Source: Chlamydiota bacterium
GTDB lineage: Bacteria; Auribacterota; JACPWU01
Assembly (NCBI GenBank): GCA_016196885.1
Contig: JACPWU010000050.1
Location: 30,001 to 62,000, forward strand
Length of the DNA: 32,000 nucleotides
Direction of reading: 5' to 3'
Positions 3,972-29,967 of the stretch are shown piece by piece. The translations under genes were made by a program, and so were the position numbers. The notes beneath the pieces were generated by a model that was given only the letters and a program-made list of their open reading frames with translations, was not told the DNA's origin and did no database searches. How positions within the stretch are numbered: the stretch's first letter is position 1; every line of letters starts with the position of its first letter.

Positions 3972-3999
3972 ACAAAGCACCTCACACTCCGCAACAAAT

Positions 4000-4126
4000 A
4001 ATTACCAATCACCAATTACAAATGTCAAATGAATGACCAATGACTCAATGTTCAATTGGACATTGAATCATTGGAAATTAATTTGTAATTGGTAATTGGT
4101 AATTGAAAATTGGTCATGGGTCATTG
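4000..4126. repeat. Type A heptamer hairpin (AATTGGT/CATTGGT units), copy 1, centred on CAATTG 4053-4058
   Basis: Right arm reads taattgg taattgg taattga aaattgg tcatggg tcattg; left arm reads aattacc aatcacc aattaca aatgtca. Hand pairing from the centre gives about 30 positions that are mostly Watson-Crick. The element fills the murC-murB stop (4130) to ddl start spacer. Confidence 0.85.
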
Positions 4127-4129
4127 TTT

Positions 4130-6355
4130 TTAATCTTCCCCCACCACCTCTACTTCATTTTCCAAAAGTACCTTTTTCTCCTGATAAACACGGTTTCGAA
4201 CCTGTTCAATGAGAGAAATAACATCCGAGGCCTTGGCCTTACCCTTATTTACAATAAAATTAGCGTGCTGAGAAGAAACCTGCGCCTCTCCATAACTTAA
4301 ATCTTTCAACCCGGATTGATCAATCAGTTCGCCTGCATGAAAGCCCGAAGGATTTTTAAAAATACATCCTGCATTAGGCAATCTTGGATAAGTCAAAACC
4401 CTTTTGTTTTTGCGGACGATCATTTTCTCACAAATTTTTCTGGGATCGGAAGGAACAAGACGAAATCTTGCCTGAAGTGCAATCTTTCCTCTGAGGCCCA
4501 GACAGGTCCGATATTTTAGTTGTAATTTTTGACGAGACAATGTTTCTAAAGCCCCTTCCGGCGTTAAAGCCGTGACAAAATCTAAGGCGTCTCCAATCTC
4601 AGAACCATAAGCCCCTGCATTAAAATGAAGGGCGCCGCCAATGGTTCCCGGAATCCCTTTTAAATTTTCCAAGCCTGAAAGACTGGCCTCCATCGCAATT
4701 TGAATCACCTCCGCCAAACTCAGTCCCGAACCGACTGTCAAATTTTCCCCCTCTACATTCCACTGGCGAAAAGAGGGACTGGAAAGACGAACCACCACGC
4801 CCCGAATCCCCCCATCTTTCACAATCACATTGGAACCATTCCCAATCACAAAAAGAGGTAAACCTTTCTTACGCGCCCATTGTTGTACTTGAAGGAGTTC
4901 TTCCAAGTGACAGGGTTCAATCCAAAAATCAGCGGGACCTCCCAAATGAAAAGTGGTGTGCTTAGCCATGGATTCCCCTTTGAGAATTCGCCCTTTTAGA
5001 GAATCCAAAACATTTTTTTTCATTTGAAGATCATCCAAAACCTCTTGACCCAAATTTGTAATATCCCCTGCCCCCAAGGTTAAAACAGCTTGATAAGCAA
5101 AATAATTTTCTAATGTGTAGTTGCGAAGACCTTCACGATCTGAAATATATTCGACGGACGGCTTCCCCCATTTTACGATCTCTTCATAAATTGAGCGGCC
5201 CGTCACACCTGCTATAGGATTTTCATGGCTTGCATAAACATCTGTGATTACAACATGATCCAAACCTTCAAAAGCTCTTCCAAATTGTTCTTTCAGGTGA
5301 TAAGTACGGCTGTAACGATGCGGCTGAAAGACACCTAATAATTTTCCGGAGAAACAAAGGCGTGCATTTTGAATCGTCGCCTGGATTTCTGTTGGATGAT
5401 GCGCATAATCATCCACGAACATCGTATTTTCAAATTGCCCTTTCACCTGAAAACGACGTGCTGCCCCTTCAAAATTTTCCAAGGCTTTTTGAATCGCAGA
5501 AAATTCAACTCCCGCTTGTAACCCCACTCCCACAGCGGCCAAGGCATTTAGGATTTGATGCCTACCTGAAATGTTTAAAGAGATTTCACCTAAATCATTC
5601 CCCTTGAAAGAAAGGTGAAATTTCGACCGCCAGGGCAAAGTTTTAACCTGAGACGCTTGAAGCTGGGTGCTTTCAGAAAAACCATAAGTAATAAAAGAAA
5701 CGCCTGGATATTGTTCAATAAGCCTTCGACAACCCAAATCATCCGAACAAACTAAAACGGGGCCTGATACCTGACCCACAAAAGTTTTAAAATGACTTAC
5801 AATTTCATTAAAATCCTTAAAAAAATCCAGATGCTCCGGCTCTAAATTGGTGATGACGGCCACCTGAGGATGATATTCCAACAAACTTCCATCACTCTCA
5901 TCCGCCTCAAAGAGAGCCCAATCCCCTTGCCCGTTCCTCGCATTTCCACTTAGAAAAGGGAAGTCTCCTCCCACCGCAACAGTAGGATCAAGTCTTCCCT
6001 CCAACAAAATTTTTGCGATCATTCCCGTGGTAGAAGTTTTCCCATGCATACCCGAAACAGCGATCGATTTTTTCTCTTTCATCAAATTCCAAAGCATTTG
6101 AGAGCGATGCAAAAGAGAGACACCAGACCTTTTCGCTTCAGCTCTCTCAACGTGAGATCCGTTGATGGCACTGGAAAAAACAACGCAGTCCCTTCCTTCC
6201 ACATAGGAAGGATGATGTCCCTGGTAAACACGAATTTTCTCGCCTAGAGAAACTTTTCTCCTGTCTGAGCCGCTGACCTCATGTCCCTGAGAAGACAGGA
6301 TACAAGCCAAGGCGCTCATGCCAGAACCGCCAATACCTATCAAATGAATTTTCAT
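4130..6355 (-). CDS. murC/murB: Bifunctional MurC-MurB fusion (UDP-N-acetylmuramate--L-alanine ligase fused to UDP-N-acetylenolpyruvoylglucosamine reductase)
   Basis: N-terminal half: IGIGGSGMSALA, GMHGKTSTTGM, DDYAHHPTEI, LTLGAGDIT (MurC). C-terminal half from about nt 5020 downward: KHTTFHLGGPADFW, VIGNGSNVIV, GIPGTIGGALHFNAGAYG, GCIFKNP, SSQHANFIVN (MurB). It is a single uninterrupted 741-aa frame. Confidence 0.9.
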   Translation of the reverse strand: MKIHLIGIGGSGMSALACILSSQGHEVSGSDRRKVSLGEKIRVYQGHHPSYVEGRDCVVFSSAINGSHVERAEAKRSGVSLLHRSQMLWNLMKEKKSIAVSGMHGKTSTTGMIAKILLEGRLDPTVAVGGDFPFLSGNARNGQGDWALFEADESDGSLLEYHPQVAVITNLEPEHLDFFKDFNEIVSHFKTFVGQVSGPVLVCSDDLGCRRLIEQYPGVSFITYGFSESTQLQASQVKTLPWRSKFHLSFKGNDLGEISLNISGRHQILNALAAVGVGLQAGVEFSAIQKALENFEGAARRFQVKGQFENTMFVDDYAHHPTEIQATIQNARLCFSGKLLGVFQPHRYSRTYHLKEQFGRAFEGLDHVVITDVYASHENPIAGVTGRSIYEEIVKWGKPSVEYISDREGLRNYTLENYFAYQAVLTLGAGDITNLGQEVLDDLQMKKNVLDSLKGRILKGESMAKHTTFHLGGPADFWIEPCHLEELLQVQQWARKKGLPLFVIGNGSNVIVKDGGIRGVVVRLSSPSFRQWNVEGENLTVGSGLSLAEVIQIAMEASLSGLENLKGIPGTIGGALHFNAGAYGSEIGDALDFVTALTPEGALETLSRQKLQLKYRTCLGLRGKIALQARFRLVPSDPRKICEKMIVRKNKRVLTYPRLPNAGCIFKNPSGFHAGELIDQSGLKDLSYGEAQVSSQHANFIVNKGKAKASDVISLIEQVRNRVYQEKKVLLENEVEVVGED

Positions 6356-7479: not shown

Positions 7480-8663
7480 GTTTTGCGCCTCCTTGCGAAC
7501 AGACGACGTGGTTTCGCCTTCACCCGTACCCTCAAGGACTCCCGAGAGTCCCGATTCCTTCTCTGATCTAACCTACCAGCTAAATTCATTAAAATGCCGA
7601 TCCCGGCCATGTTCAAGACCAAACTGGTTCCTCCAAAACTGATGAAAGGGAGCGGCAGGCCCTTGGTCGGTAAAGTCCCCGTGACCACCCCCATGTTAAT
7701 CACCGTCTGAAAGGCCAGGAGGCTCACAATCCCAAGGCCCATGAGATGACCCAGAAGATCCTCTGTTTTCAAAACCACGCGAAAGCCCAATACAAAAAGG
7801 AAAAAGAAGGCAAGACACACCATCAAAACTCCCAAGAAACCCAACTCTTCTCCGATAATGCTGAAAATAAAATCCGTATGCGCCTCTGGCAAATAAAATA
7901 ATTTCTGACGAGACTCTCCCAAACCAACCCCCGTTAATCCCCCTGAACCCAAGGCAATAAAGGATTGAATGATTTGAAATCCGACTCCCTTAGGGTCTTT
8001 CCAAGGATCTAAAAAGGCAAGAATTCGAGCCCGCCGATATGCGGCCCCCGCGATGAGATAATAAAGGGCCGGCAGGGAGATGAGTGTCAATCCCAGAAGA
8101 TAGGTGAAACGGACGCCTCCGACAAACAAAAGGATCATTCCGACGGTTCCAATCCCCAATGTAGTCCCAAGATCTGGCTGAATTAAAATCATCACAACCA
8201 TCAACCCTAAAACAGCAATCGGCGGAAGAAAACCATGCACGAAAGACTTGACTCTATTTTGACCCGAAGACAACCTTTTTGCCAAGAAAAAAATAGTCGC
8301 ATACTTAGCAAGTTCAGATGGTTGAAAACTAAAGCCTCCTACTTTTAGCCAACGACGAGCCCCGCCCACCTGATGACCGACAGAAGGAACCATCACCCCC
8401 ACGAGAAGAATGGCTGATAAAATTAAAATCCATAGCGATGCGCTCCCCCAAAATTCATAAGGGACACGATACCCCACGTAAAGCGTAACCACACCAAAGG
8501 CCACCCATAAAAGCTCCTTCCTCAAGAAAAAGAGAGCATCTCCAAAACGCTCCTGAGCCAGAATCGCACTGGTGCTGTAAATCATCACCAGTCCTACGGC
8601 GATTAAAAAAAGTGTAGTGTAAAATAAAAGATACGCTGTTTTTTGCATATTTTTTTCAGACAC
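7476..8663 (-). CDS. ftsW: SEDS-family peptidoglycan glycosyltransferase FtsW
   Basis: Polytopic membrane protein with QPSELAK, QPDLGT and PEAHTDFIFS motifs. The GTG at 8663 overlaps the murD stop; an alternative ATG lies at 8648. Confidence 0.9.
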   Translation of the reverse strand: MSEKNMQKTAYLLFYTTLFLIAVGLVMIYSTSAILAQERFGDALFFLRKELLWVAFGVVTLYVGYRVPYEFWGSASLWILILSAILLVGVMVPSVGHQVGGARRWLKVGGFSFQPSELAKYATIFFLAKRLSSGQNRVKSFVHGFLPPIAVLGLMVVMILIQPDLGTTLGIGTVGMILLFVGGVRFTYLLGLTLISLPALYYLIAGAAYRRARILAFLDPWKDPKGVGFQIIQSFIALGSGGLTGVGLGESRQKLFYLPEAHTDFIFSIIGEELGFLGVLMVCLAFFFLFVLGFRVVLKTEDLLGHLMGLGIVSLLAFQTVINMGVVTGTLPTKGLPLPFISFGGTSLVLNMAGIGILMNLAGRLDQRRNRDSRESLRVRVKAKPRRLFARRRKT

Positions 8664-10128
8664 GGCTTAGTTCAAAGGCCGAACGCACTTGATCCTTAAA
8701 ATATCTCCCCCTCTCCTCAAAATTCTTGAACTGATCAAAACTCGAACAGCCCGGAGAAAGTAAAACCGTATCCTGTGGAGAAACTTGCTCTCTCAAAACA
8801 TGAACCACGTCTTTCAAAGAAGAACAAAGTAGAGACTTACAGGCATCCTTCAACTTTTCGTAAATCAAAGGTCCTGCCTCTCCATAAAAATAGGCCTTTT
8901 TCACCTTTCCTGAAAGAAGAGGCTTTAAAAGTTCAAAATCCCCCCCCTTGAAACGTCCTCCTGCTAACCAAAGAATGGGTTTTGGAAAAACCTCTAAGGC
9001 TGATCGTACCGCATCCACACTGGTCGCCTTAGAATCATTCACCCAACGGGCCCCTTCCCACTTCGCAAATATCTCTTGACGATGTTCCAAACCTGAAAAA
9101 GAGGAAACGGTACGACGAATGGTTTCTAAAGAAATCCCGCATAAAGAGGCAGCAGTCACTGCAAACATCACATTTTCTAAATTGTGCTTGCCAGGAAGAG
9201 CAATGTCTTCCACGGGCATGATTTCATGAATGTAATCGTGACTTAATGAAGTCCCTTTAACCCCTCCAACTCCCCTTAAATAAGGGGAGGGCTGCTCCCC
9301 TCTTATGTTAAGAGGGGTTGGGGGAGTTAATGAATTTTTTCCATCATTGAAGCTTTTCATCCTCACACATAAAATCCTATTTTTAACAAAACATCCTTTC
9401 TCTTCCACCCCTTTAGAATTTATAAAAAGAGTCTTCACATGGGATGACGCAAAAGAAGCGCAAGAACGATTGACCAGGGCCCAATCTTCTTCATTTTGAT
9501 TGCGAAAAATATGGGCCTTGGCCGACCCATACGCTTCCATAGAAGGGTAACGATCTAAATGATTGGCTGTCACATTTAATAAGAGACTGACCCATGGCTT
9601 CAAATTTCCAATCGCCTCCAATTGAAAAGAACTCACCTCTAATACCCAAATTTCTGTCAGGGGATTCTCAAGCACAGCCCTCGATAAACTCAAGCCGATA
9701 TTCCCAGCCAAAGTCGCCTTAAGACCTGCGTCGCTTAAAATTTTCCAAATCAAAGTGGCCGTCGTACTTTTTCCATTGCTTCCCGTCACAGCAATGATTT
9801 TGCCGGATAAAAATTGACTTGCCCATTCCAACTCCCCCAAAACGGGAACCCCTCTAGCTGACAAATTTTTCACGAGCGGCATATCCAAGGGAATCCCTGG
9901 ACTTAAAATTGCAAAATCTACCTCTCGACAAAAATTTTCAGAATGAATCCCCAATTCTACTTCCACTCCTACCGTAGGAAGCTTCTCAGCCCTGTGAATC
10001 ACCTCTTCACCACAGGAAGAATCTGTCACACGCACAGAAGCGCCCAATGATTTCAGGAGCAAACTCGCGCCCAAACCCGACTCGCCTAAACCAATGACCA
10101 ATGCTTTTTTACCAATCAAAGATTGCAT
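8656..10128 (-). CDS. murD: UDP-N-acetylmuramoylalanine--D-glutamate ligase carrying a 28-aa in-frame insertion
   Basis: GLGESGLGASLLLK, VTGSNGKSTTATL, LPGKHNLENVMFA, NDSKATSVDA. At 490 aa it is longer than usual because of the 9251-9334 insertion. Confidence 0.9.
   Translation of the reverse strand: MQSLIGKKALVIGLGESGLGASLLLKSLGASVRVTDSSCGEEVIHRAEKLPTVGVEVELGIHSENFCREVDFAILSPGIPLDMPLVKNLSARGVPVLGELEWASQFLSGKIIAVTGSNGKSTTATLIWKILSDAGLKATLAGNIGLSLSRAVLENPLTEIWVLEVSSFQLEAIGNLKPWVSLLLNVTANHLDRYPSMEAYGSAKAHIFRNQNEEDWALVNRSCASFASSHVKTLFINSKGVEEKGCFVKNRILCVRMKSFNDGKNSLTPPTPLNIRGEQPSPYLRGVGGVKGTSLSHDYIHEIMPVEDIALPGKHNLENVMFAVTAASLCGISLETIRRTVSSFSGLEHRQEIFAKWEGARWVNDSKATSVDAVRSALEVFPKPILWLAGGRFKGGDFELLKPLLSGKVKKAYFYGEAGPLIYEKLKDACKSLLCSSLKDVVHVLREQVSPQDTVLLSPGCSSFDQFKNFEERGRYFKDQVRSAFELSRV
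9251..9334. mobile_element. 84-bp structured palindromic insertion inside murD, bounded by 8-bp direct repeats (MITE/RPE-like)
   Basis: TTAATGAA occurs at 9243-9250 and again at 9327-9334, exactly 84 nt apart. Between them, an outer stem (ttaacccctccaa / ttgggggagttaa, 2 mismatches) encloses two 9-bp hairpins: ctcccctta-aa-taaggggag and cccctctta-tgt-taagagggg. The insertion translates in frame as TPPTPLNIRGEQPSPYLRGVGGVKGTSL. Confidence 0.55.
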
Positions 10129-10195
10129 AATTTAATTTCAATAATCTTTCGAGATCATCGTAGAGGACGAAAGTTCTCCCCATCATGCTTTTTTT
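10129..10195 (-). repeat. Conserved leader module, copy 1 (directly 5' of the murD ATG on the mRNA), including the T7/A7 tract
   Basis: The 40-nt string gaaagttctccccatcatgctttttttgtagtcgcccgatt is identical to that in 16380-16419. The flanking atctttcgagatcatcg is also shared. It contains a uORF that starts ATGATG at 10186. Confidence 0.8.
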
Positions 10196-10349
10196 GTAGT
10201 CGCCCGATTTATCCCCCCACCCAATCCAGCTGTTATCTTTAGCACGTTCGTAAGCTTATGACCCGTGCATTGATCGCTAAACAATCCCGCCACCTTGGAT
10301 AGATTGGGTGGGGGGATGAATCGGGCAGCCCCATAAATGGGGCGACTAC
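10196..10349. repeat. REPIN-like inverted REP doublet with GTAG heads, copy 1 (carries a nested insertion)
   Basis: GTAGTCGCCCGAT...ATCGGGC is followed by the inverted GCCCCATAAATGGGGCGACTAC. Each half is GTAG plus a short palindrome. The outer 10-bp stem is TGTAGTCGCC/GGCGACTACA. Confidence 0.6.
10211..10317. mobile_element. 107-nt insertion with perfect 16-bp terminal inverted repeats, nested in the loop of the first REP hairpin
   Basis: ATCCCCCCACCCAATC (10211-10226) is the exact reverse complement of GATTGGGTGGGGGGAT (10302-10317). The homologous REP in copy 2 has only cccgaTTCAtcggg at this position. Confidence 0.55.
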
Positions 10350-10355
10350 AAAGAG

Positions 10356-10480
10356 TCCAAAATCCAAAAATCAAAATGCAAAATGACAATTCAAAAATTA
10401 AATTTTTTCAACGCAACAATATTAGAAACATTTTGGATTTTGGTATGTCATTTTGATGTTTGATGTTTGGATTTTTAATT
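10356..10480. repeat. Type D heptamer hairpin (CAAAATN / AT-only units), copy 1
   Basis: Left arm reads tccaaaa tccaaaa atcaaaa tgcaaaa tgacaat tcaaaaa; right arm reads ttttgga ttttggt atgtcat tttgatg tttgatg tttggat. The mraY stop codon (10480-10482) lies at the end of the right arm. Confidence 0.8.
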
Positions 10481-11577
10481 TATCTTAATTTCAGCACCCC
10501 CAAACTCAACAATGCAAAAATCGCCGCCAAAATCCAAAATCGAATCGTCACCTTTGTCTCAGGCCAACCCTTCACCTCAAAATGATGATGGAGAGGGGCC
10601 ATCTTAAAAATCCTTTTTCTTCGCAATTTAAAAGAGCCCACCTGGAGCATCACGGAAAGGGCCTCGATCACAAAAACACCTCCCACAATGAAAAGCATCA
10701 TCTCTTGTTTAGAAAGAAGCGCAACCACACCCAAGCTCCCGCCCAAGGCCAAAGACCCTGTATCCCCCATAAAAACTTGAGCAGGATAAGCATTATACCA
10801 AAGAAACCCCAGACCCGCCCCTACGAGGCTAGCGCAAAAAACGGTCAATTCTCCAACCCCTGCGACCGGTTGAAGTTGAAGGTAGGTCGCAAATTTGACA
10901 TTGCCGACGAGATAAGTCAATGCCGAAAAAACCAGGGCAGAAACCGTCACACACCCAATCGCCAAACCATCCAAACCATCCGTCAAATTCACCGCATTCG
11001 ACGATCCGACAAAAACACTCAATAAAAATATAAGATAAAAAAATCCCAAATCGAAAGTCCAGTTTTTAAGAAAAGGAAGACTCACATGACTAAAAAAGGG
11101 TTGCAGATGATGTTCATGCCTCATGAAGAGCCAAAGAACAACAGCCAAGAGAATTTGCACCACAAATTTTGTCTTGGCCCTCACACCTAAAGACCTTTTA
11201 TTTTTCAATTTTAAATAATCATCCCAAGCCCCCAAAAACCCAAGACCCGTCACACAAAAGACAGTGATCCACACAAAATGATTGGTTAGATCAGACCAAA
11301 GAAAAACGGAAATTAAAATTGCGAGGAGAATCAAAGCCCCGCCCATGGTGGGCGTTCCTTCTTTACTGCGATGAAGGGCAAAAAGAGGCGGGCATTCTTC
11401 TTTGCGAATGTTCTGGCCTACTTTGAGAGAATACAATTTTCGAATGAGCCACGGGCCCAAAAAGAGGGTCATCGCAAAAGCTGTCACAGCTGCAAAGGCC
11501 GCCCGGAAGGTGATGTAACGGAAGACGTTAAAGGGGGAAAAAATTTCTCTTAAAGGATATAACAAATGATACAGCAT
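10480..11577 (-). CDS. mraY: Phospho-N-acetylmuramoyl-pentapeptide transferase
   Basis: MLYHLLYPL..FNVFRYITFRAAFA, PTMGG, NAVNLTDGLDGLA, VFMGDTGSLALGG, APLHHHFE. Confidence 0.95.
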   Translation of the reverse strand: MLYHLLYPLREIFSPFNVFRYITFRAAFAAVTAFAMTLFLGPWLIRKLYSLKVGQNIRKEECPPLFALHRSKEGTPTMGGALILLAILISVFLWSDLTNHFVWITVFCVTGLGFLGAWDDYLKLKNKRSLGVRAKTKFVVQILLAVVLWLFMRHEHHLQPFFSHVSLPFLKNWTFDLGFFYLIFLLSVFVGSSNAVNLTDGLDGLAIGCVTVSALVFSALTYLVGNVKFATYLQLQPVAGVGELTVFCASLVGAGLGFLWYNAYPAQVFMGDTGSLALGGSLGVVALLSKQEMMLFIVGGVFVIEALSVMLQVGSFKLRRKRIFKMAPLHHHFEVKGWPETKVTIRFWILAAIFALLSLGVLKLR

Positions 11578-13049: not shown

Positions 13050-14531
13050 TCATTCCTGAAGACTGTACGCTACACGCTGTACGCTTTCTTTTACCACAGC
13101 CACATCATCAAAGGGAATTTGAAAAGCACCGATTTGCTGAAATTTTTCATGCCCCTTTCCTGCAACCAAAACCACATCCCCACGTCTAGCCAAATCGAGT
13201 GCCCTGTCAATCGCTGTGCGACGATCCGAAATCTTTTCAAAGGGAATTTTTTCCTCTGCCACACCCGCCTCAATTTCGCAAATAATCTTCTCAGGATCTT
13301 CGCTCCGTGGATTGTCCGAAGTGATAATGACAAAATCCGAAAAATGGGCGGCCGAGCACCCCATTTTAGGACGCTTCGAGCGATCTCGATCGCCCCCACA
13401 TCCAAAGAGAGTGATCAAGCGCCCCTTCACCAAGGGTCTCAATGTTTCCAAAACATTACGAAGGGCCTCTTCGGTATGCGCGTAATCTACGATCACCTGA
13501 AAGGGGGCATCCAGAGAAACAAATTCCATTCGGCCGGGAACATTCTTAAAATTTTCCAAACCTTCCTTGATTTTTTCTGGATACATTCCCAATACCCACC
13601 CAACTGCAAAGGCAGCCAGGGCATTGTAAACATTAAACCGCCCAATCAAAGGAAGTCTTAACGAAAGACTCCCATTCGGAAACACCACCTCAAAAGAACT
13701 CCCCCCCATATCGGATTCAAGATGACGAGCCTGAATCATGGCCCCTTGAGAAAGTCCATAGCTGATGAGTCGAGCCTTTGACAACGCCTCCACCCTTGCA
13801 CCCCAAGGATCGTCATGATTCACCACTGCGAAACCCTCTGGACTTAATAAATCTCTAAACAAAATCGCCTTGGCGGAAAAATAATTCTCTAAATTTTGAT
13901 GATAATCCAAATGATCCTGAGAAAGATTCGTGAAAACGGCAACATCAAAGGAAATACCGTCCAGCCGCCCTTGCCCAAGGGCATGGCTAGAGGCTTCTAG
14001 CACCACCGATTGAGAACCCTGATCTAACATGTCACGAAAATATTTTTGCAAGTCGAGTGACTCGGGCGTCGTTCTCTCAGCAGGGATCAAACGCCTTCCC
14101 ATCTTGTAATAAACCGTTCCTAAAAGACCCGGATGATCCCCTCTTCCCCGTAGAAGAGATTCAATCAAAAAACTCACCGTCGTCTTCCCATTGGTCCCGG
14201 TCACTCCCACCACAGTTAAACCCTCAGCCGGATTTTCATAAAAGGCACAGGCCAACTGGGCCATGGCACGTCTGGCATCCTTCACCACAAAACAAGAAAC
14301 ATTTTTAAATCTTATATTTTCATCTTCCACACACAACGCCACCGCACCGCGAGATACGGCATCCTCCGCGAAATCCTTCCCATCCCTCTTCTCGCCGCGC
14401 CAAGCGATAAAAAGATGCCCCGGCTCCACTTTTCTGGAATCGAAACTAATCCCGCTGATGAGAACATGCGGATCTCCGTGGAAGGATAAAATTTCAAGAC
14501 CTTTGATTAAAGAAGACAATGATATATGCAT
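13050..14531 (-). CDS. murE: UDP-N-acetylmuramoyl-L-alanyl-D-glutamate--2,6-diaminopimelate ligase
   Basis: FDSRKVEPGHLFIAWRG, GVTGTNGKTTVSFL, DYAHTEEAL, ITSDNPRSEDP (DNPR motif). I prefer the ATG at 14531 (MHISLSS). The 22 extra N-terminal residues in the ORF track (SNWRLDHWKLNCHWKFGIGNF) are a read-through of the type A repeat. Confidence 0.92.
   Translation of the reverse strand: MHISLSSLIKGLEILSFHGDPHVLISGISFDSRKVEPGHLFIAWRGEKRDGKDFAEDAVSRGAVALCVEDENIRFKNVSCFVVKDARRAMAQLACAFYENPAEGLTVVGVTGTNGKTTVSFLIESLLRGRGDHPGLLGTVYYKMGRRLIPAERTTPESLDLQKYFRDMLDQGSQSVVLEASSHALGQGRLDGISFDVAVFTNLSQDHLDYHQNLENYFSAKAILFRDLLSPEGFAVVNHDDPWGARVEALSKARLISYGLSQGAMIQARHLESDMGGSSFEVVFPNGSLSLRLPLIGRFNVYNALAAFAVGWVLGMYPEKIKEGLENFKNVPGRMEFVSLDAPFQVIVDYAHTEEALRNVLETLRPLVKGRLITLFGCGGDRDRSKRPKMGCSAAHFSDFVIITSDNPRSEDPEKIICEIEAGVAEEKIPFEKISDRRTAIDRALDLARRGDVVLVAGKGHEKFQQIGAFQIPFDDVAVVKESVQRVAYSLQE
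13063..13085. repeat. Type B heptamer array, solo arm, inside the murE 3' end
   Basis: ctgtacg ctacacg ctgtacg ct. It encodes the MurE tail ..VQRVAYS.. on the minus strand. Confidence 0.6.
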
Positions 14532-14534
14532 AAA

Positions 14535-14609
14535 ATTCCCAATACCAAATTTCCAATGACAATTTAATTTCCAATGATCCAATCTCCAATTGGACATTTG
14601 TCATTGGTT
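14535..14609. repeat. Type A heptamer element, copy 2 (asymmetric: long left arm, short right arm)
   Basis: aattccc aatacca aatttcc aatgaca ... ccaattggacatttgtcattggtta. It shares the CCAATTGGACATT core. The ccaatgacaa/ttgtcattgg 10-bp stem is present. The ftsI stop and last codons (..NTNQ*) lie inside the element. Confidence 0.75.
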
Positions 14610-16322: not shown

Positions 16323-16405
16323 AATGAATCTCCTTAAAATATCAATTTTAATGATCTTTCGAGATCATCGTGTGCGATGAAAGTTCTCCCCATCATGCTT
16401 TTTTT
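16323..16405 (-). repeat. Conserved leader module, copy 2 (directly 5' of the ftsI ATG on the mRNA), including the A7 tract
   Basis: It has the same 40-nt identical block as copy 1. The uORF runs from ATGATG at 16396 to a TAA at 16334-16336 that overlaps the ftsI Shine-Dalgarno (TAAGGAG). Confidence 0.8.
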
Positions 16406-16466
16406 GTAGTCGCCCGATTCATCGGGCAATCCGTGTGCACGGCAGCCCCATAAATGGGGCGACTAC
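16406..16466. repeat. REPIN-like inverted REP doublet with GTAG heads, copy 2 (61 nt, four-way junction)
   Basis: GTAGTCG | CCCGA-ttca-TCGGG | caat CCGT-gtgc-ACGG | ca GCCCCA-taaa-TGGGGC | CGACTAC. The two REP halves differ by a compensated stem change (CCCGA/TCGGG versus CCCCA/TGGGG). Confidence 0.6.
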
Positions 16467-16490
16467 AAGGGCGATTTTCATCCTCCTTTG

Positions 16491-16508
16491 TGCCGACCTC
16501 AGTCGGCA
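16491..16508. repeat. Short GC hairpin TGCCGAC-ctca-GTCGGCA between the REPIN and the type D hairpin (copy 2 only)
   Basis: Perfect 7-bp stem with a 4-nt loop. Confidence 0.5.
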
Positions 16509-16522
16509 TGAATGTTTCATAG

Positions 16523-16649
16523 CAAAAATCAAAATGCAAAATTCAAAATGACAAATTAAAATTTAAAACAATCATGCAAGACTGAGAGTCAATATATTTT
16601 GATTTTTAATACGTCATTTTGATATTTAATTTTTAATTTTTGATTTTTT
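16523..16649. repeat. Type D heptamer hairpin, copy 2
   Basis: caaaaatcaaaatgcaaaattcaaaatgacaaatt ... ttttgatttttaatacgtcattttgatatttaatttttaatttttgatttttt. The element ends 1 nt from the ftsL stop (16650). Confidence 0.8.
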
Positions 16650-17081
16650 CTAATCCATTCCCTTCCCTGCCACGCTTAGCAAAGACGCCGAATCCAGACT
16701 CTCTTTCCCCCAATCAGAACTCATTAAATCATCTTCGTAAAACACAGGTTCCTCATGAAGCTTCACCACTTTCAACACATCTGACATCGCCAAACCCAAT
16801 CCCTCTTCCTCCGCCTTTATCATGATACGACTGGGCATTTTTAACGCCGAGAGATCCGTTTCCAAAGTTCTCTCATGCTTAGAAAGCTCTAACGCCATTC
16901 TTTCCTTTTCCTTAATTTGATACCCCATCCGAACCACCTGCACGTTTTGCCACACGTAAAAAAGTGCCAAGAAAATTCCAAAAACCAAACAAAGAAAAGT
17001 TCTCACCACCACACTCCATCGCGTGACTCCGGCCTGTCTTCGTCTCGCCTTCAAATAGGCTTGACTGTAATAACGTCTCAT
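16650..17081 (-). CDS. ftsL: Cell division protein FtsL
   Basis: Basic N-terminus, a single TM (VVVRTFLCLVFGIFLALFYVW), a coiled coil, then PSRIMIKAEEEGLGL, the typical FtsL C-motif. It lies between rsmH and ftsI. I prefer the ATG at 17081 (MRRYYSQ), which has GGGGGTGA upstream; the ORF-track start at 17123 lies in the type A repeat. Confidence 0.8.
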   Translation of the reverse strand: MRRYYSQAYLKARRRQAGVTRWSVVVRTFLCLVFGIFLALFYVWQNVQVVRMGYQIKEKERMALELSKHERTLETDLSALKMPSRIMIKAEEEGLGLAMSDVLKVVKLHEEPVFYEDDLMSSDWGKESLDSASLLSVAGKGMD

Positions 17082-17103
17082 GAAAATCACCCCCTTTTTT
17101 TTA

Positions 17104-17210
17104 TGACCAATGACCCATTTCAAATGTCAAATGAATGGACAATGACCCGATGTTCAATTGGACATTGACTCATTGGAAATTCATTTGTTATTGGTCATTG
17201 GTCATTTGAA
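17104..17210. repeat. Type A heptamer hairpin, copy 3, centred on CAATTG 17155-17160
   Basis: tgaccaatgaccc...aatgtcaaatgaatggacaatgacccgatgttcaattggacattgactcattggaaattcatttgttattggtcattggtca. By my hand alignment it has 8 mismatches in about 79 nt against copy 1. It ends 1 nt from the rsmH stop. Confidence 0.85.
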
Positions 17211-17211
17211 A

Positions 17212-18123
17212 TTATATTTTCTCTATCGCCCTTAACCTGGCACTCCTCGCTCTTCGATTCTCACGCACCTCTTCTGGAGAAGGTCTCAGAGGTTTACGCG
17301 TTAAAATTTTAACCACCCCAGACCCTCCAGATTCATCCCCCCCTTTGACAGAACAGCCTCTAAAAAACCGTTTCACCAAACCGTCCTCTAAAGAATGAAA
17401 AGAAATAACGACCCATCGTCCGCCTGACCTCAAGGCACGAAGCGCCTGAGGCAACACCTCTTCCAAGGCTCCCATCTCATCATTCACATAAATTCTTAAG
17501 GCTTGAAAAACTCTCGTCGCCGGGTGAATTTTTTGATTTTGATAACGCCGTCCGATTGTTTTCTCAACCAGGTCAGCCAATTGAAAGGAATTCTGCAAAG
17601 GAAGTTGTCTTCGGGATTGAACAATGGCTCTTGCGATTTTGCGGGCATAACGCTCTTCGCCCAGATCAAAAAAAATTCGGCTCAGCTCCTCTTCACTTGA
17701 ATCGCGCAACACTTCTCGAGCTGTACATCCCTTGGAAACATCCATTCTCATATCCAAAGGTCCCGAATTGGAAAAACTAAAACCACGCTCAACATCTTCT
17801 AATTGATAAGAGGAAAAGCCTAAATCCATCAGGATTGCGTCCACCTGACTTACTTGAAGAGATTTCAAATGGCTTTCTAAATTTCTAAAATTGCCATGAA
17901 CCCATCGAATGTCATCATTGAAATCTCTCAAATTTTCCTTCGCAACTTCCAAGGTACGCTCGTCTTGATCCATAGCGATCAAACTCCCCCCTGGCAAAAT
18001 TCCTTTTAAAATCTCCCTCGAATGACCTCCCAAACCAACGGTTGCATCCACCACGGTGCTTCCTGGCTTTAAATTCAGAAACTCCAATGCTTCTCTTAGA
18101 AAAACACTAACGTGCGTAAACAA
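17212..18123 (-). CDS. rsmH: 16S rRNA (cytosine1402-N4)-methyltransferase RsmH/MraW
   Basis: HVSVFLREALEFL, DATVGLGGHS, DLGFSSYQLE, SFHSLEDGLVK. The apparent start codon is TTG at 18123. Confidence 0.93.
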   Translation of the reverse strand: MFTHVSVFLREALEFLNLKPGSTVVDATVGLGGHSREILKGILPGGSLIAMDQDERTLEVAKENLRDFNDDIRWVHGNFRNLESHLKSLQVSQVDAILMDLGFSSYQLEDVERGFSFSNSGPLDMRMDVSKGCTAREVLRDSSEEELSRIFFDLGEERYARKIARAIVQSRRQLPLQNSFQLADLVEKTIGRRYQNQKIHPATRVFQALRIYVNDEMGALEEVLPQALRALRSGGRWVVISFHSLEDGLVKRFFRGCSVKGGDESGGSGVVKILTRKPLRPSPEEVRENRRARSARLRAIEKI

Positions 18124-18141: not shown

Positions 18142-18225
18142 AGCGTACAGCGTTCAGCGGACAGCGGACAGTTTGAAGGAACTTATTTTTCTGTCCGCTG
18201 TACGCTGAACGATGTACGCCGAACG
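18142..18225. repeat. Type B heptamer hairpin (GCGTWCA/GCGGACA units), copy 2
   Basis: agcgtac agcgttc agcggac agcggac ag pairs with ctgtccgctgtacgctgaacgatgtacgc. I count 29 paired positions with 2 internal mismatches and a 19-nt loop. It sits in the mraZ stop (18230) to rsmH start spacer. Confidence 0.85.
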
Positions 18226-18821: not shown

Positions 18822-18915
18822 AGCGTTCAGCATTCAGCGTTCAGCGTTCAGCGTTCAGCGTTCAGAAAAAAACAAGCTCCTTTAAACTGTCGCTATACGC
18901 TGAACGCTGTACGCT
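18822..18915. repeat. Type B heptamer hairpin, copy 3, with six tandem AGCRTTC units
   Basis: agcgttc agcattc agcgttc agcgttc agcgttc agcgttc ag ... ctgtcgctatacgctgaacgctgtacgct. It lies between the mraZ -35 (8 nt away) and rnpB. Confidence 0.85.
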
Positions 18916-18961
18916 CTATTTTATTGGGGTATTTTTCAGCTAGATTGAGTATATTATTAAT

Positions 18962-19354
18962 GAAGGGAGAGCCGGATGATCGCTCCGACGTAACGTCGGA
19001 GAGGAAAGTCCGAACTCCACAGGGTGAAGTGACTTCTCGTAGAAGTCGGTCGAGCGCTTTTTAAATAAAGTTCAAGACCAGGGAAAGTGCCACAGAGACA
19101 ATACTACTTCGATGCAAATCGAAGGAAAGGTGAAAAGAGAAGGGATGTTCGAAAGAGCTACTCTTCTCTCCGATGAGTACAAGCTCTATCGGAGTGGAAA
19201 ACCCCACTTGGAGCGAGATCAAATAAAAGACCGTGAGGTACCCGCCTCCCGTTGACTGAATCGACAGGTCTTGGGTAAGATCGCATAAGAGAAATGATCA
19301 TCACGGGCCGTCTAAAAACGGCCTGACAGAATTCGGCTTACAGGCTCTTCCTTC
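18962..19354 (+). ncRNA. rnpB: RNase P RNA (bacterial type)
   Basis: P1 pairing is GAAGGGAGAGCC (5') with GGCTCTTCCTTC (3'). The universally conserved P4 strands GAGGAAAGTCCG (19011-19022) and ACAGAATTCGGCTTA (19326-19340) are present, as are GGGAAAGTGCCACAGA-type internal motifs. A T6 run follows the 3' end. Confidence 0.9.
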
Positions 19355-19360
19355 ATTTTT

Positions 19361-20318: not shown

Positions 20319-20324
20319 AATCTC

Positions 20325-20438
20325 AAATTTCCAATGACCCATTCCCAATGTCAAATGAATGACCCATGACTCAATATCCAATTGGACATTCGATCATTGG
20401 AAATTAACTTGTCATTGGCAATTGAGAATTGGAAATGA
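20325..20438. repeat. Type A heptamer hairpin, copy 4, centred on CAATTG 20379-20384
   Basis: aaatttccaatgacccattcccaatgtcaaatgaatgacccatgactcaatatccaattggacattcgatcattggaaattaacttgtcattggcaattgagaattggaaatga. It sits between the gcvPB stop (20445) and the ligase start. Confidence 0.85.
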
Positions 20439-26164: not shown

Positions 26165-26173
26165 ATTCTACCA
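26165..26173 (-). promoter_or_regulatory. Candidate extended -10 (TGGTAGAAT) for the lipoprotein gene
   Basis: The minus strand reads cTTTTTaTGGTAGAATgttc, about 35 nt upstream of the ATG at 26126. There is no good -35, and that region lies inside the hairpin. Confidence 0.3.
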
Positions 26174-26180
26174 TAAAAAG

Positions 26181-26268
26181 CAGGGAATAGGGTGTAGGGA
26201 TTAGGGTATAGGGAACAATGTTCTTAATTAAAATCATTATTTCCCTAAACCCTACACCCTATTCCCTG
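26181..26268. repeat. Type C heptamer hairpin (TAGGGNN units), copy 1; on the minus strand it is followed by T5
   Basis: cagggaa tagggtg tagggat tagggta tagggaa ... ttccctaaaccctacaccctattccctg. It starts 7 nt after the tRNA(CAT) 3' end and may act as an intrinsic terminator. Confidence 0.8.
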
Positions 26269-26275
26269 CATTTCA

Positions 26276-26348
26276 TGGGCCCACTAGGATTTGAACCTAG
26301 GACCAATGGATTATGAGTCCACTGCTCTAACCGCTGAGCTATGGGCCC
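26276..26348 (-). tRNA. tRNA with CAT anticodon; elongator type, probably tRNA-Ile2 (lysidine), alternatively tRNA-Met
   Basis: The reverse complement folds as GGGCCCA-TA-GCTC-AGCGGTTA-GAGC-A-GTGGA-CTCATAA-TCCAT-TGGTC-CTAGG-TTCAAAT-CCTAG-TGGGCCC-A. It is not an initiator: G1-C72 is paired and the anticodon stem lacks the 3 G-C pairs. C4-G69 and C5-G68 match E. coli ileX. Confidence 0.88.
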
Positions 26349-26355
26349 GAAAAAA

Positions 26356-26444
26356 GTAGGGCATAGGGTATAGGGCTCAGGGCTTAGGGAAAAAATAAAT
26401 AAACAACCTTACCCCAAACCCTACTCCCTACACCCTATGCCCTG
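26356..26444. repeat. Type C heptamer hairpin, copy 2; on the minus strand it is followed by T6
   Basis: gtagggc atagggt atagggc tcagggc ttaggga ... taccccaaaccctactccctacaccctatgccctg. It sits between the rpoD stop (26450) and the tRNA(CAT) 5' end (26348). Confidence 0.8.
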
Positions 26445-26449
26445 AATTT

Positions 26450-28162: not shown

Positions 28163-29902
28163 TTACATTTTCTTAAGCGTTGCAATTTCTTTCTGAAGTC
28201 CTTGCAGCTCAACTAAAATAACGCCGATTTGAGCTGAATTCTTCCCTGATTCTTCAAGCCTTTTTAATTCCTGAGTCAAATTCAGACATTTTTTATCGTA
28301 AGTCCTTAATTTAAAGGTAGTTATATAATCAGAAAGAACTTTTTCTGGATTCTGGAAAGAAAATTTTTCCACCAGAAGACTGCTCAGAATACCTTGAAAT
28401 CGAGGATCAGACAGCAAAGAATCGGCACCTTTATTCTCTAACATATTCTGAAGCAATAACTTATAATCTTCAAATTCAAAATCCTCTGGTTTAACTTCTC
28501 CCCTGACCTTCTCAAAAAGCCTTGAGTCCGACAAAATAAGCTTCAAAAGCCCCTTTTCTAAAGCACAGGGTCCTGGCAATTGGGAAGGATCCTTTTCTCC
28601 AGAACGAAACTCTGACCTCGCTGGCTTGATACCCTTTATTTCTTCCCGCAAAGACTGTTCAGAAATCTTTAGCCTTTGACTTAAAAGCTGAAGATAATGA
28701 TCTTGAAGCACCGCATTTTTAATGCGACTCAGGATCGGCAAAATTTCTCGTGCGATTTTCAGTTTTGAAACCTCATCCTGTGAGGGATGACGATTCATGA
28801 GAATACCGATTTTAAAATCAATCATGGAGGGAGACTCCTGAATCAGCTTTAGGAAAGCCTCTTTTCCGTTTTTTCGAATCCACGTATCCGGATCATCCCC
28901 TTCAGGAATCTGTGCAATTTTGACAATCATGTCCTGACCGAGAAAAACTTCTAAGGCCCGAAGAGAGGCCTCGACCCCTGCCCTGTCTCCGTCGTAAGCA
29001 ACCACAACGCCTTGGGCAAAGCGCCGTAAGATTCGGACATGATTTTCATTGAAGGCGGTTCCGAGGGAGGCCACCACATTTTCAACACCTGCCTCATACA
29101 CATGGATCATGTCCATGTAGCCTTCGACCAAAATCACCCGAGACTCTTGAAGAATGGCCCTTTTGGCCAAATGAAGGCCGTAGAGCAATTGGCTTTTATT
29201 GAATAACGGGGTTTCGGGAGAATTTAAATACTTGGGCATCTGGTCCCCCAGCGCACGGCCTCCAAAGCCCACAACTCTGGCCTGGGCATCCATGATGGGG
29301 AACATAATCCTTCCTTTGAAGCGGAGATTTTTTCCGCCCCCACCTGGGCCTGTCACACCCACGCGCTCCAAGAGTTTTTCCTCGAGCCCCAATCGCTGAA
29401 ATTCTTTCAGCACCTCCGTCTCCCTCAAAGGGCAATAACCCATTCGAAAGGTTTCAACCATTTTTTTATTCACCCCTCTTGCCTTAAGATAATTCCTCGC
29501 CTCAGCGGCCTCTTCTGTGAAGAGGGATCTCTGAAAAAAGTGGGCCACCTTTTCTGCAACGTCAAAGAGCTGTTTCTTTTGAAATTCTCCCGATCCCTCC
29601 TTTACTTTTGAGATGACCACACCCGCCTTTTCTGCCAGGATTTCCACAGCCTCAGGGAAACCGATGTTCTCATATTTCATCAAGAAGCTAAAAACATTGC
29701 CTCCCGCTCCACAACCGAAGCAGTGAAAAATCCCCTTCTCAGGATTCACCATAAAGGAAGGCGTTTTCTCAGGATGAAAAGGGCACAAGGCCTTGTAATT
29801 GCGCCCAGCCCCTTTGAGCGGCACATATTGTGCAATCAACTGCACAATATCCACCTTGAGCTGGATCTGGGAAAGTGTACTTTCAGGAATTAATTCAGAC
29901 AT
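28163..29902 (-). CDS. dnaG: DNA primase
   Basis: Zn finger CPFHPEKTPSFMVNPEKGIFHCFGCGAGG, plus TOPRIM motifs (LVEGYMDMI, AYDGDRAG). I prefer the ATG at 29902 (MSELIPEST); the ORF-track extension reads through the type B repeat. Confidence 0.92.
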   Translation of the reverse strand: MSELIPESTLSQIQLKVDIVQLIAQYVPLKGAGRNYKALCPFHPEKTPSFMVNPEKGIFHCFGCGAGGNVFSFLMKYENIGFPEAVEILAEKAGVVISKVKEGSGEFQKKQLFDVAEKVAHFFQRSLFTEEAAEARNYLKARGVNKKMVETFRMGYCPLRETEVLKEFQRLGLEEKLLERVGVTGPGGGGKNLRFKGRIMFPIMDAQARVVGFGGRALGDQMPKYLNSPETPLFNKSQLLYGLHLAKRAILQESRVILVEGYMDMIHVYEAGVENVVASLGTAFNENHVRILRRFAQGVVVAYDGDRAGVEASLRALEVFLGQDMIVKIAQIPEGDDPDTWIRKNGKEAFLKLIQESPSMIDFKIGILMNRHPSQDEVSKLKIAREILPILSRIKNAVLQDHYLQLLSQRLKISEQSLREEIKGIKPARSEFRSGEKDPSQLPGPCALEKGLLKLILSDSRLFEKVRGEVKPEDFEFEDYKLLLQNMLENKGADSLLSDPRFQGILSSLLVEKFSFQNPEKVLSDYITTFKLRTYDKKCLNLTQELKRLEESGKNSAQIGVILVELQGLQKEIATLKKM

Positions 29903-29909
29903 AGGAAAT

Positions 29910-29939
29910 AGCGTACAGCGTATAGCGTTCAGCGGACAG
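29910..29939. repeat. Type B heptamer array, solo arm
   Basis: agcgtac agcgtat agcgttc agcggac ag. I see no convincing complementary arm. It sits between the cvpA stop and the dnaG start. Confidence 0.7.
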
Positions 29940-29967
29940 AAAAAATCCATCCTCATTGAAACTGTTC

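Follow-up and report, generated by a model that had tools for sequence, protein, structure and literature searches.

An inverted pair of potential triplex motifs in frame within murD, and DUF559 nucleases as candidate partners of its repeat family

The murD gene of a Chlamydiota bacterium (GTDB lineage Bacteria; Auribacterota; JACPWU01) contains a short, highly structured segment that keeps the reading frame, which raises the question of what kind of DNA entered this essential gene and how it came there. The gene lies in a stretch of 32,000 nucleotides (assembly GCA_016196885.1, contig JACPWU010000050.1, positions 30,001 to 62,000 of the forward strand), hereafter the window. The original prediction, made from the letters of the window, was that a MITE (miniature inverted-repeat transposable element) with a target-site duplication had been tolerated inside the enzyme, much as Rickettsia palindromic elements (RPEs) are tolerated in their host genes. 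We consider it likely that the insert is instead an inverted pair of potential triplex motifs, one per strand, which belongs to a cross-phylum family, persists in murD as a tolerated passenger and has been spread by DUF559 nucleases. The role of these nucleases, taken by itself, is put forward more tentatively.

The insert and its host protein

The two copies of the 8-nt direct repeat were found as described, with their starts 84 nt apart, and the DNA between them holds two 9-bp hairpins, both perfect (Table 1). Perfect hairpins with a stem of at least 9 bp and a short loop occur only four times in the whole 32 kb, two of them being the murD pair, and the expected number of matches to each hairpin pattern in shuffled sequences was 0. 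When folded as DNA, the + strand adopts the three-way junction that had been proposed (-21.4 kcal/mol, z -3.9), and as RNA the sense strand folds best into a single long hairpin (-40.8 kcal/mol, z -3.4); the folding tools cover Watson-Crick pairs only. The element ends in imperfect 10-nt inverted repeats, TAACCCCTCC and TAACTCCCCC, and the limits of its core fall where 39 full copies from other genomes, among the matches listed, have their conserved ends. No Rfam family was detected at the insert site, at gathering or E-value thresholds, and no second copy of the element was found inside the 32-kb window by hairpin patterns, hairpin scan or profile hidden Markov model (HMM).

Table 1. Positions of the murD insert, its parts and other structured repeats in the window
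Feature	Position	Strand	Remarks
murD (UDP-N-acetylmuramoyl-L-alanine--D-glutamate ligase)	8656..10128	-	490 aa; open reading frame; host gene of the insert
Codons of the 28-aa insert	9244..9327	-	MurD residues 268-295; translation
Direct repeat copy TTAATGAA	9243..9250		7 nt (GTCCCTT, 9251-9257) away from the core; those 7 nt are no feature of the family
Direct repeat copy TTAATGAA	9327..9334		begins with the core's conserved terminal TTA (3 nt)
Element core, inverted unit pair	9258..9329		72 nt; TAAC/GTTA ends outside; ends defined by the family
Unit 1	9258..9289	+	TAAC 9258-9261, block CCCTCC 9262-9267, AA, hairpin 9270-9289 (CTCCCCTTA-AA-TAAGGGGAG); strict scan
Spacer between units	9290..9296		GGCTGCT, 7 nt; read from the sequence; family spacers 5-106 nt
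Unit 2	9297..9329	-	TAAC 9329-9326, block TCCCCC, AA, hairpin 9317-9297 (CCCCTCTTA-ACA-TAAGAGGGG); strict scan
Heptamer-repeat hairpins	3995-4133, 14529-14598, 17097-17217, 20321-20437		intergenic
Heptamer-repeat hairpins	18142-18225, 18822-18925, 29901-29960, 13061-13085		intergenic
Heptamer-repeat hairpins	26171-26278, 26356-26449		intergenic
Heptamer-repeat hairpins	10358-10475, 16523-16648		intergenic

Only one of the six frames through the insert is free of stop codons, and it is the frame of murD. The segment would therefore be translated as a Pro/Gly-rich, probably disordered loop (TPPTPLNIRGEQPSPYLRGVGGVKGTSL), which the enzyme appears to tolerate. Deletion of the 84 nt yields the seamless GKNSLSHD junction that had been foreseen and a protein of 462 aa, within the 439-486 aa spanned by 81 MurD homologues. 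The MurD of the window is 100% identical to a protein of a Chlamydiae metagenome-assembled genome (MAG) with Mur-ligase Pfam domains, and two contigs carry this identical protein, one of 39 kb (GCA_016178005.1) and one of 70.8 kb; identity to the next-nearest MurD proteins is only 53-56%. In an alignment of 82 MurD sequences, all 41 invariant residues are kept in the window protein and the 28 insert columns are empty in 80 of its 81 homologues. At the level of sequence, the insert is thus a lineage-specific, in-frame insertion in an essential gene, absent from orthologues.

An AlphaFold model of the window MurD (predicted local distance difference test, pLDDT, 91; predicted TM score 0.89) matched E. 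coli MurD with a target-normalised TM score of 0.85-0.86. Its sole low-confidence segment spans residues 261-296 (pLDDT <50), between strands 252-257 and 299-305. The model bears out the suggestion of a surface loop: the insert is probably disordered and exposed at a beta-hairpin turn of the central domain, and the ligase fold is otherwise intact in the prediction. A different insert, of about 30 aa, was noticed at another MurD site in a 56%-identical relative (P0003; L001, about 1114-1230); it is G/C-rich, with a hairpin GCCCCGATG-TTA-CATCGGGGC, and its fold over 135 nt has -58 kcal/mol.

A dispersed family of paired units

Species-representative genomes were scanned for one hairpin sequence, which gave more than 118 matching stretches, from Geobacteraceae and other Desulfuromonadota, Nitrospirota, Thermodesulfovibrionia, several lineages of the candidate phyla radiation, Auribacterota, Gammaproteobacteria and others. 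The flanks of these stretches revealed that the whole architecture is common to them. We defined a strict unit as TAAC, a 6-nt pyrimidine block, N2-5 and a 9-bp hairpin closed by TTA/TAA, and used a profile HMM together with a rule-based scanner, controlled by shuffled sequences, to model the units; MAFFT misaligned their 3' arms because loop lengths vary. At least 135 strict units were found in at least 70 loci and none in shuffled sequences, and their consensus is TAACCCCTCC-N-CCTCCCCTTA-N-TAAGGGGAGG. Among the matches listed, the units form 7 monomers, 30 inverted pairs with their ends outside and 18 inverted pairs with their ends inside, and the murD core is a pair of the ends-outside kind. 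An HMM built from 121 units of other genomes matched just the two murD units in the window, with E-values of 4e-5 (unit 1) and 6e-5 (unit 2). Copies in Saccharibacteria, Auribacterota and Thermodesulfovibrionia share 81-88% identity with the core, far above the identity of host proteins between these groups. Viral DNA also carries the family: strict units were present in 22 of 25 matching viral stretches, several per contig, with up to five on each of the predicted viral contigs (IMG/VR, L203-L227). We conclude that the murD insert, judged by its letters, is a member of a dispersed repeat family that crosses many phyla.

The expectation that further copies exist was borne out not only in many genomes but also in the same MAG. 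A word-indexed protein database search with the insert peptide gave no match; an exhaustive HMMER search with a 32-aa peptide matched P0123 (MBI1884500.1 / MBI3267037.1), a 1001-aa protein of the same Chlamydiae MAGs that is annotated as helix-hairpin-helix domain-containing. Residues 10-33 of this protein are LTPPTPLNLRGENLSPYLRGVGGV, and its alignment to the murD insert with flanks shows 22 identities over 30 residues. The longest contig for P0123, of 70,793 bp, is the same as for MurD, and the protein is not encoded in the window. This copy may be coding or, should the actual start codon be located further downstream, may belong to the 5' leader. The genome therefore holds at least two copies, in murD and P0123, and about 3 kb of new sequence beyond the window on the source contig, reached via the end proteins, contained no new one.

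Full pairs within long open reading frames (ORFs) numbered 5 of 39, including murD, among the matches listed. One Uhrbacteria MAG (MGDU01) has in-frame copies in RuvB and PrmC (L016 3628-3713 and L039 1132-1222), a Doudnabacteria MAG (L071) has one in Fmt, and an Auribacterota MAG has one in a giant ORF, where the peptide VTPPTPLSLRGEESSPLRIRGDGGVI is similar to that of murD. Since 22 of the same 39 pairs have no open frame at all, the intragenic copies represent the subset able to survive there. A second Gly-rich stretch of the Doudnabacteria Fmt, PPLDGEGSGGVD, may be another insert.

The analogy with RPEs, which was part of the original prediction, holds for the effect on the protein, as the copies in RuvB, PrmC and Fmt also illustrate. 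RPEs lie in frame in housekeeping genes and add a peptide that is compatible with the fold (Ogata et al. 2000; reviewed in PMC10969869, together with in-frame MITE fusions). They are about 100-150 bp long and confined to Rickettsia, and some are CGTC-tagged REPs (PMC3733652), whereas the murD core measures 72 nt and its family is cross-phylum. By analogy, it is apt to say that in murD the insert behaves like an RPE.

On its G-rich strand, each unit consists of a C-rich arm, a short loop, a G-arm, a short gap and a mirror G-block, a layout that corresponds to the requirements of a purine-motif intrastrand triplex. We applied a triplex-motif test (ITxF definition: a pyrimidine arm, then a purine arm, then a third block that mirrors the latter, with stems of 6-15 nt and loops of 1-6 nt), and both murD units fell within the definition, each with 8 consecutive valid purine-motif triads and loops of 2-3 nt. 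Of 135 units among the matches listed, 116 have an outer block that is the mirror image of the hairpin arm, compared with a mean of 58 and a maximum of 74 for shuffled pairings. Two unit types can be told apart by a swap, TAAC-CCCTCC occurring with arm CTCCCC and TAAC-TCCCCC with arm CCCCTC; the counts of block type by arm type in the same set are 66/0/0/35 (p 6e-28), and the murD pair comprises one unit of each type. These data suggest that the murD units are potential triplex motifs.

BoxC repeats have been known since the 1990s and were later named PIT elements and, later still, TMECO. As in the murD family, their units comprise three consecutive blocks with short loops, are rich in G/C and strongly conserved, and occur in multiple copies (Hoyne et al. 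2000; Holder et al. 2015, PMC4666352). A survey counted 3610 TMECO occurrences in 262 proteobacterial genomes, often as inverted pairs of two types, without known function and without mobility genes nearby (PMC4666352). The murD family is likewise multicopy, dispersed and arranged in frequent inverted pairs of two unit types, with no transposase recurring nearby in the 118 listed loci, and some TMECOs share its TTA second loop. The sequences differ, however: murD-family units read CYCCYCTTA..TAAGRGGRG..GRGGRGTTA and do not match the TMECO consensus, CCCTCNCCC-N3-6-GGGNGAGGG-N3-GGGNGAGGG. TMECOs are also reported only in Proteobacteria, not on mobile elements and always in intergenic DNA (in E. 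coli without exception; PMC4666352), whereas the murD family occurs in many phyla, on viral contigs and in frame in genes. It is best classed as a family new in sequence but of the known BoxC/PIT intrastrand-triplex architecture, present in murD as an inverted pair. On this view, the architecture has a sequence family of its own far beyond Proteobacteria, and repeats with triplex motifs can enter essential genes in frame and travel on viral contigs. For annotation, such inserts would account for odd low-complexity loops in conserved proteins of MAGs.

DUF559 nuclease genes beside the units

Clustering of the ORFs in the 118 listed loci returned, as recurrent families, only ABC ATPases, local metabolic genes and DUF559, the last being the one recurrent small family (about 125 aa; PF04480; PD-(D/E)XK, Vsr-like). 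DUF559 genes lie between units in 7 of these loci, from at least 6 lineages. Upstream of the gene are a hairpin, a gap and GGGGGAGTTA, with the ATG overlapping GTTA or just after it, and downstream TAACCCCTCC and a hairpin overlap the stop codon or follow it directly. In a Desulfuromonadaceae MAG (L033 2700-5300), a tandem array with a period of 220 nt has one unit pair per repeat and a DUF559 gene inside. The predicted viral contigs carry no DUF559 gene.

The test was also run in reverse, on 80 DUF559 loci from metagenomes (L123-L202) chosen by protein similarity alone. Strict units stood beside the gene in 14 of the 15 closest DUF559 homologues, against 3 of 65 more distant ones. The distant loci have G/C-rich homopurine/homopyrimidine hairpins of their own, including the TMECO type, and such a hairpin lies within 150 nt of the gene ends in 66 of the 80 loci. 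Hairpin density was 4.9 per kb at the ends of DUF559 genes and 0.32 per kb elsewhere; the hairpins are lineage-specific, and their type shifts with protein distance. In E. coli K-12, where ycjD is the DUF559 gene, TMECO no. 9 of the 2015 survey lies about 170 nt downstream of it (L228, NC_000913.3 1351204-1351760), with a decayed duplicate of the ycjD 3' end in between, and the probability that a TMECO would fall by chance in a 200-nt stretch like this one is about 0.001. That survey makes no mention of ycjD (PMC4666352), and the literature that we searched contained no link of DUF559, COG2852 or Vsr-like proteins to such repeats.

REP and REPIN sequences with their RAYT partners (PMC3116915, PMC3337134, PMC3733652) offer a close parallel to this arrangement, in that short palindromic units occur as singletons or inverted doublets, in both arrangements and as heterodimers, some copies lie inside ORFs, DNA-repair genes included, and one small enzyme gene is flanked by units. 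Intragenic REP dimers have been described, and some RPEs have been equated with tagged REPs (PMC3733652). The REP tag, an unpaired GTAG or CGTC at one end of a stem-loop of 20-40 nt, does not occur in the murD family, whose units start with TAAC and a pyrimidine block and whose outer block, unlike in REP, is a mirror repeat of the stem. We considered TAAC as a REP-like cleavage tag and rejected this, as it is better read as part of the mirror block. The neighbour also differs, a Y1/HUH transposase (RAYT) in one case and a DUF559 PD-(D/E)XK nuclease in the other, and no RAYT was among the recurrent families of the 118 listed loci.

By analogy with RAYT genes between REPs, the DUF559 genes between units may mark the enzyme by which the family spreads. 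In the scheme that we propose, a small DUF559 (Vsr-like PD-(D/E)XK) nuclease acting in trans would cut structured or mismatched DNA formed by the units, and repair or replication would then copy a unit to a new site; one such unit pair would have entered the codons of the MurD beta-hairpin turn, where it would be read through as a passenger loop. That DUF559 (YcjD-like, Vsr-fold) nucleases are the missing partners which spread BoxC/PIT triplex repeats across phyla and phages, and into murD, ruvB, prmC and fmt, is a possibility that we hold with less than even confidence. Its interest lies in the fact that BoxC/PIT/TMECO repeats have neither an assigned function nor a route of spread, for which DUF559 is the most valuable lead. 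The recurrent neighbour is a concrete candidate enzyme and can be tested genetically in E. coli K-12, which has ycjD and 23 TMECOs. If the proposal is true, DUF559 and triplex repeats would form a nuclease-repeat partnership comparable to that of RAYT and REP, with lineage-specific hairpin families.

Competing explanations and further repeats of the window

Several observations weigh against the reading of the insert as a triplex-motif pair spread by DUF559 nucleases. Holder et al. 2015 did not detect a stable triplex, either in vivo or with DNA in double-stranded form (PMC4666352). Complementarity is demanded by the unit scanner, so that covariation in the stems is not independent evidence, and phylum counts are biased, since loci were picked via one hairpin and their listing (at least 118) is incomplete. 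The link to DUF559 is one of co-location in other genomes and does not prove mobilisation; no DUF559 gene was found in the approximately 36 kb of this genome that were read, and the hairpins at DUF559 genes could instead be expression signals of the gene itself or a favoured landing site. In the protein, homologues make a tight turn at the insert site, where the window MurD is longer by about 39 residues (KSFNDGKNSL and the 28 residues of the insert) instead of 28. Finally, the 7-8-nt flanking repeat and the 7 extra nt (GTCCCTT) of the murD copy are not accounted for by this reading: a stop codon arises when exactly the 72-nt core is removed, and if a TA or TTAA duplication is assumed, 70 nt are removed and the frame is lost.

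The last of these points bears most directly on the original view of the insert as a classical MITE, that is, a deletion derivative of an insertion sequence (IS) moved by a DDE transposase with an 8-bp target-site duplication. An exact 8-nt repeat does bracket 84 nt, their removal is the only clean excision and restores a seamless frame, the ends are imperfect inverted repeats, and flank repeats of at least 7 nt occurred in only 0.7% of control pairings with flanks from other copies. In 43 other copies among the matches listed, however, flank repeats were no longer than in mismatched-flank controls, and nothing was common to them beyond the TA inside TAAC/GTTA. The murD repeat is therefore unusual and specific to this copy, and as the 8-bp duplication is no trait of the family, a classical MITE is only partly supported. 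The two copies of TTAATGAA are moreover asymmetric, one overlapping a conserved terminus and the other lying 7 nt outside the opposite terminus. ORF clustering of the 118 listed loci revealed no transposase family that recurs beside the copies, the sole recurrent small neighbour being DUF559, and 0.85 Mb of loci showed no IS with the ends of the element.

Bacterial MITEs (Correia, ERIC, Chunjie, Nezha) resemble the murD family in being small, non-coding and structured, with inverted ends and occasional in-frame fusions, but the family lacks a constant target-site duplication and those loci revealed no parent IS for it; single units together with both inverted arrangements are typical of REP-like units, not of MITEs. 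We therefore regard a classical MITE as unlikely. What stands of the original view is a dispersed palindromic repeat, in frame and tolerated, since orthologues lack the segment and other copies exist; the duplication and the transposase do not, and the triplex-motif architecture speaks for another kind of element. The flanking repeat in murD could come from microhomology-mediated insertion, from a secondary event that restored the frame or from chance. A TA or TTAA duplication was rejected as an account of the frame, its net 70 nt being no multiple of 3, and so was a conserved 7-nt extension (AAGGGAC), which has no counterpart in other copies.

Less probable still is that the insert has been co-opted, either as a useful surface loop of MurD or as an mRNA hairpin whose GGAGG-like motifs slow translation or alter the stability of the dcw transcript. 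Two perfect hairpins, the stable RNA fold, G-rich arms similar to Shine-Dalgarno sequences and the record of an identical protein from two assemblies are all consistent with such a use. The peptide is modelled as disordered, however, and in other phyla near-identical elements occupy unrelated genes as well as intergenic DNA; PIT elements had no promoter or terminator activity in E. coli (PMC4666352), and terminator-like sites here are no commoner than in shuffled sequences.

That the ribosome skips the segment, as in the programmed bypass of T4 gene 60 or the mitochondrial byps, with the flanking repeat as take-off and landing codons, seems highly improbable. These systems do share with murD a G/C-rich, structured insert in a coding region between identical codons (here TCA-TTA around a mobile insert), and skipping would give GKNSLSHD; other intragenic copies lack flanking repeats, and the murD insert, unlike the known cases, is open in frame with no stop after the take-off site, which makes bypass unnecessary. 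An artefact of assembly, or a chimera with a different organism of the sample, has hardly any likelihood at all, for although the source MAG stems from a community whose other genomes include carriers of the family (groundwater MAGs L075, L078, L107 and L119), the same protein is on two contigs, unique murD sequence borders the in-frame insert on either side, and a second, diverged copy is in the same MAG.

Two further candidates were examined for the element and rejected. An integron attC site does not fit, as the flanks outside TAAC/GTTA are not complementary and do not agree with RYYYAAC/GTTRRRY. A likeness to XerD/dif (TTAACATAA in one loop) was set aside because the loops differ between copies.

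Other features of the window were noted in passing. A 741-aa ORF (4130-6355, - strand) combines Mur-ligase (MurC-like) and MurB domains in one protein according to Pfam, and Ddl is a separate gene downstream of it. The intergenic regions contain long hairpins of 7-nt periodic repeats, with one heptamer per family (CCAATGA-, AGCGTWC-, TAGGGNN- and CAAAATN-types; Table 1), and these flank a tRNA (26276-26348) and the RNase P RNA (18964-19356). A composite repeat of about 350 nt occurs twice, at 10134-10485, in the gap between murD and mraY, and at 16344-16651, and holds a palindrome, TTTGTAGTCGCCC...GGGCGACTACAAA, together with an exact 28-nt block.

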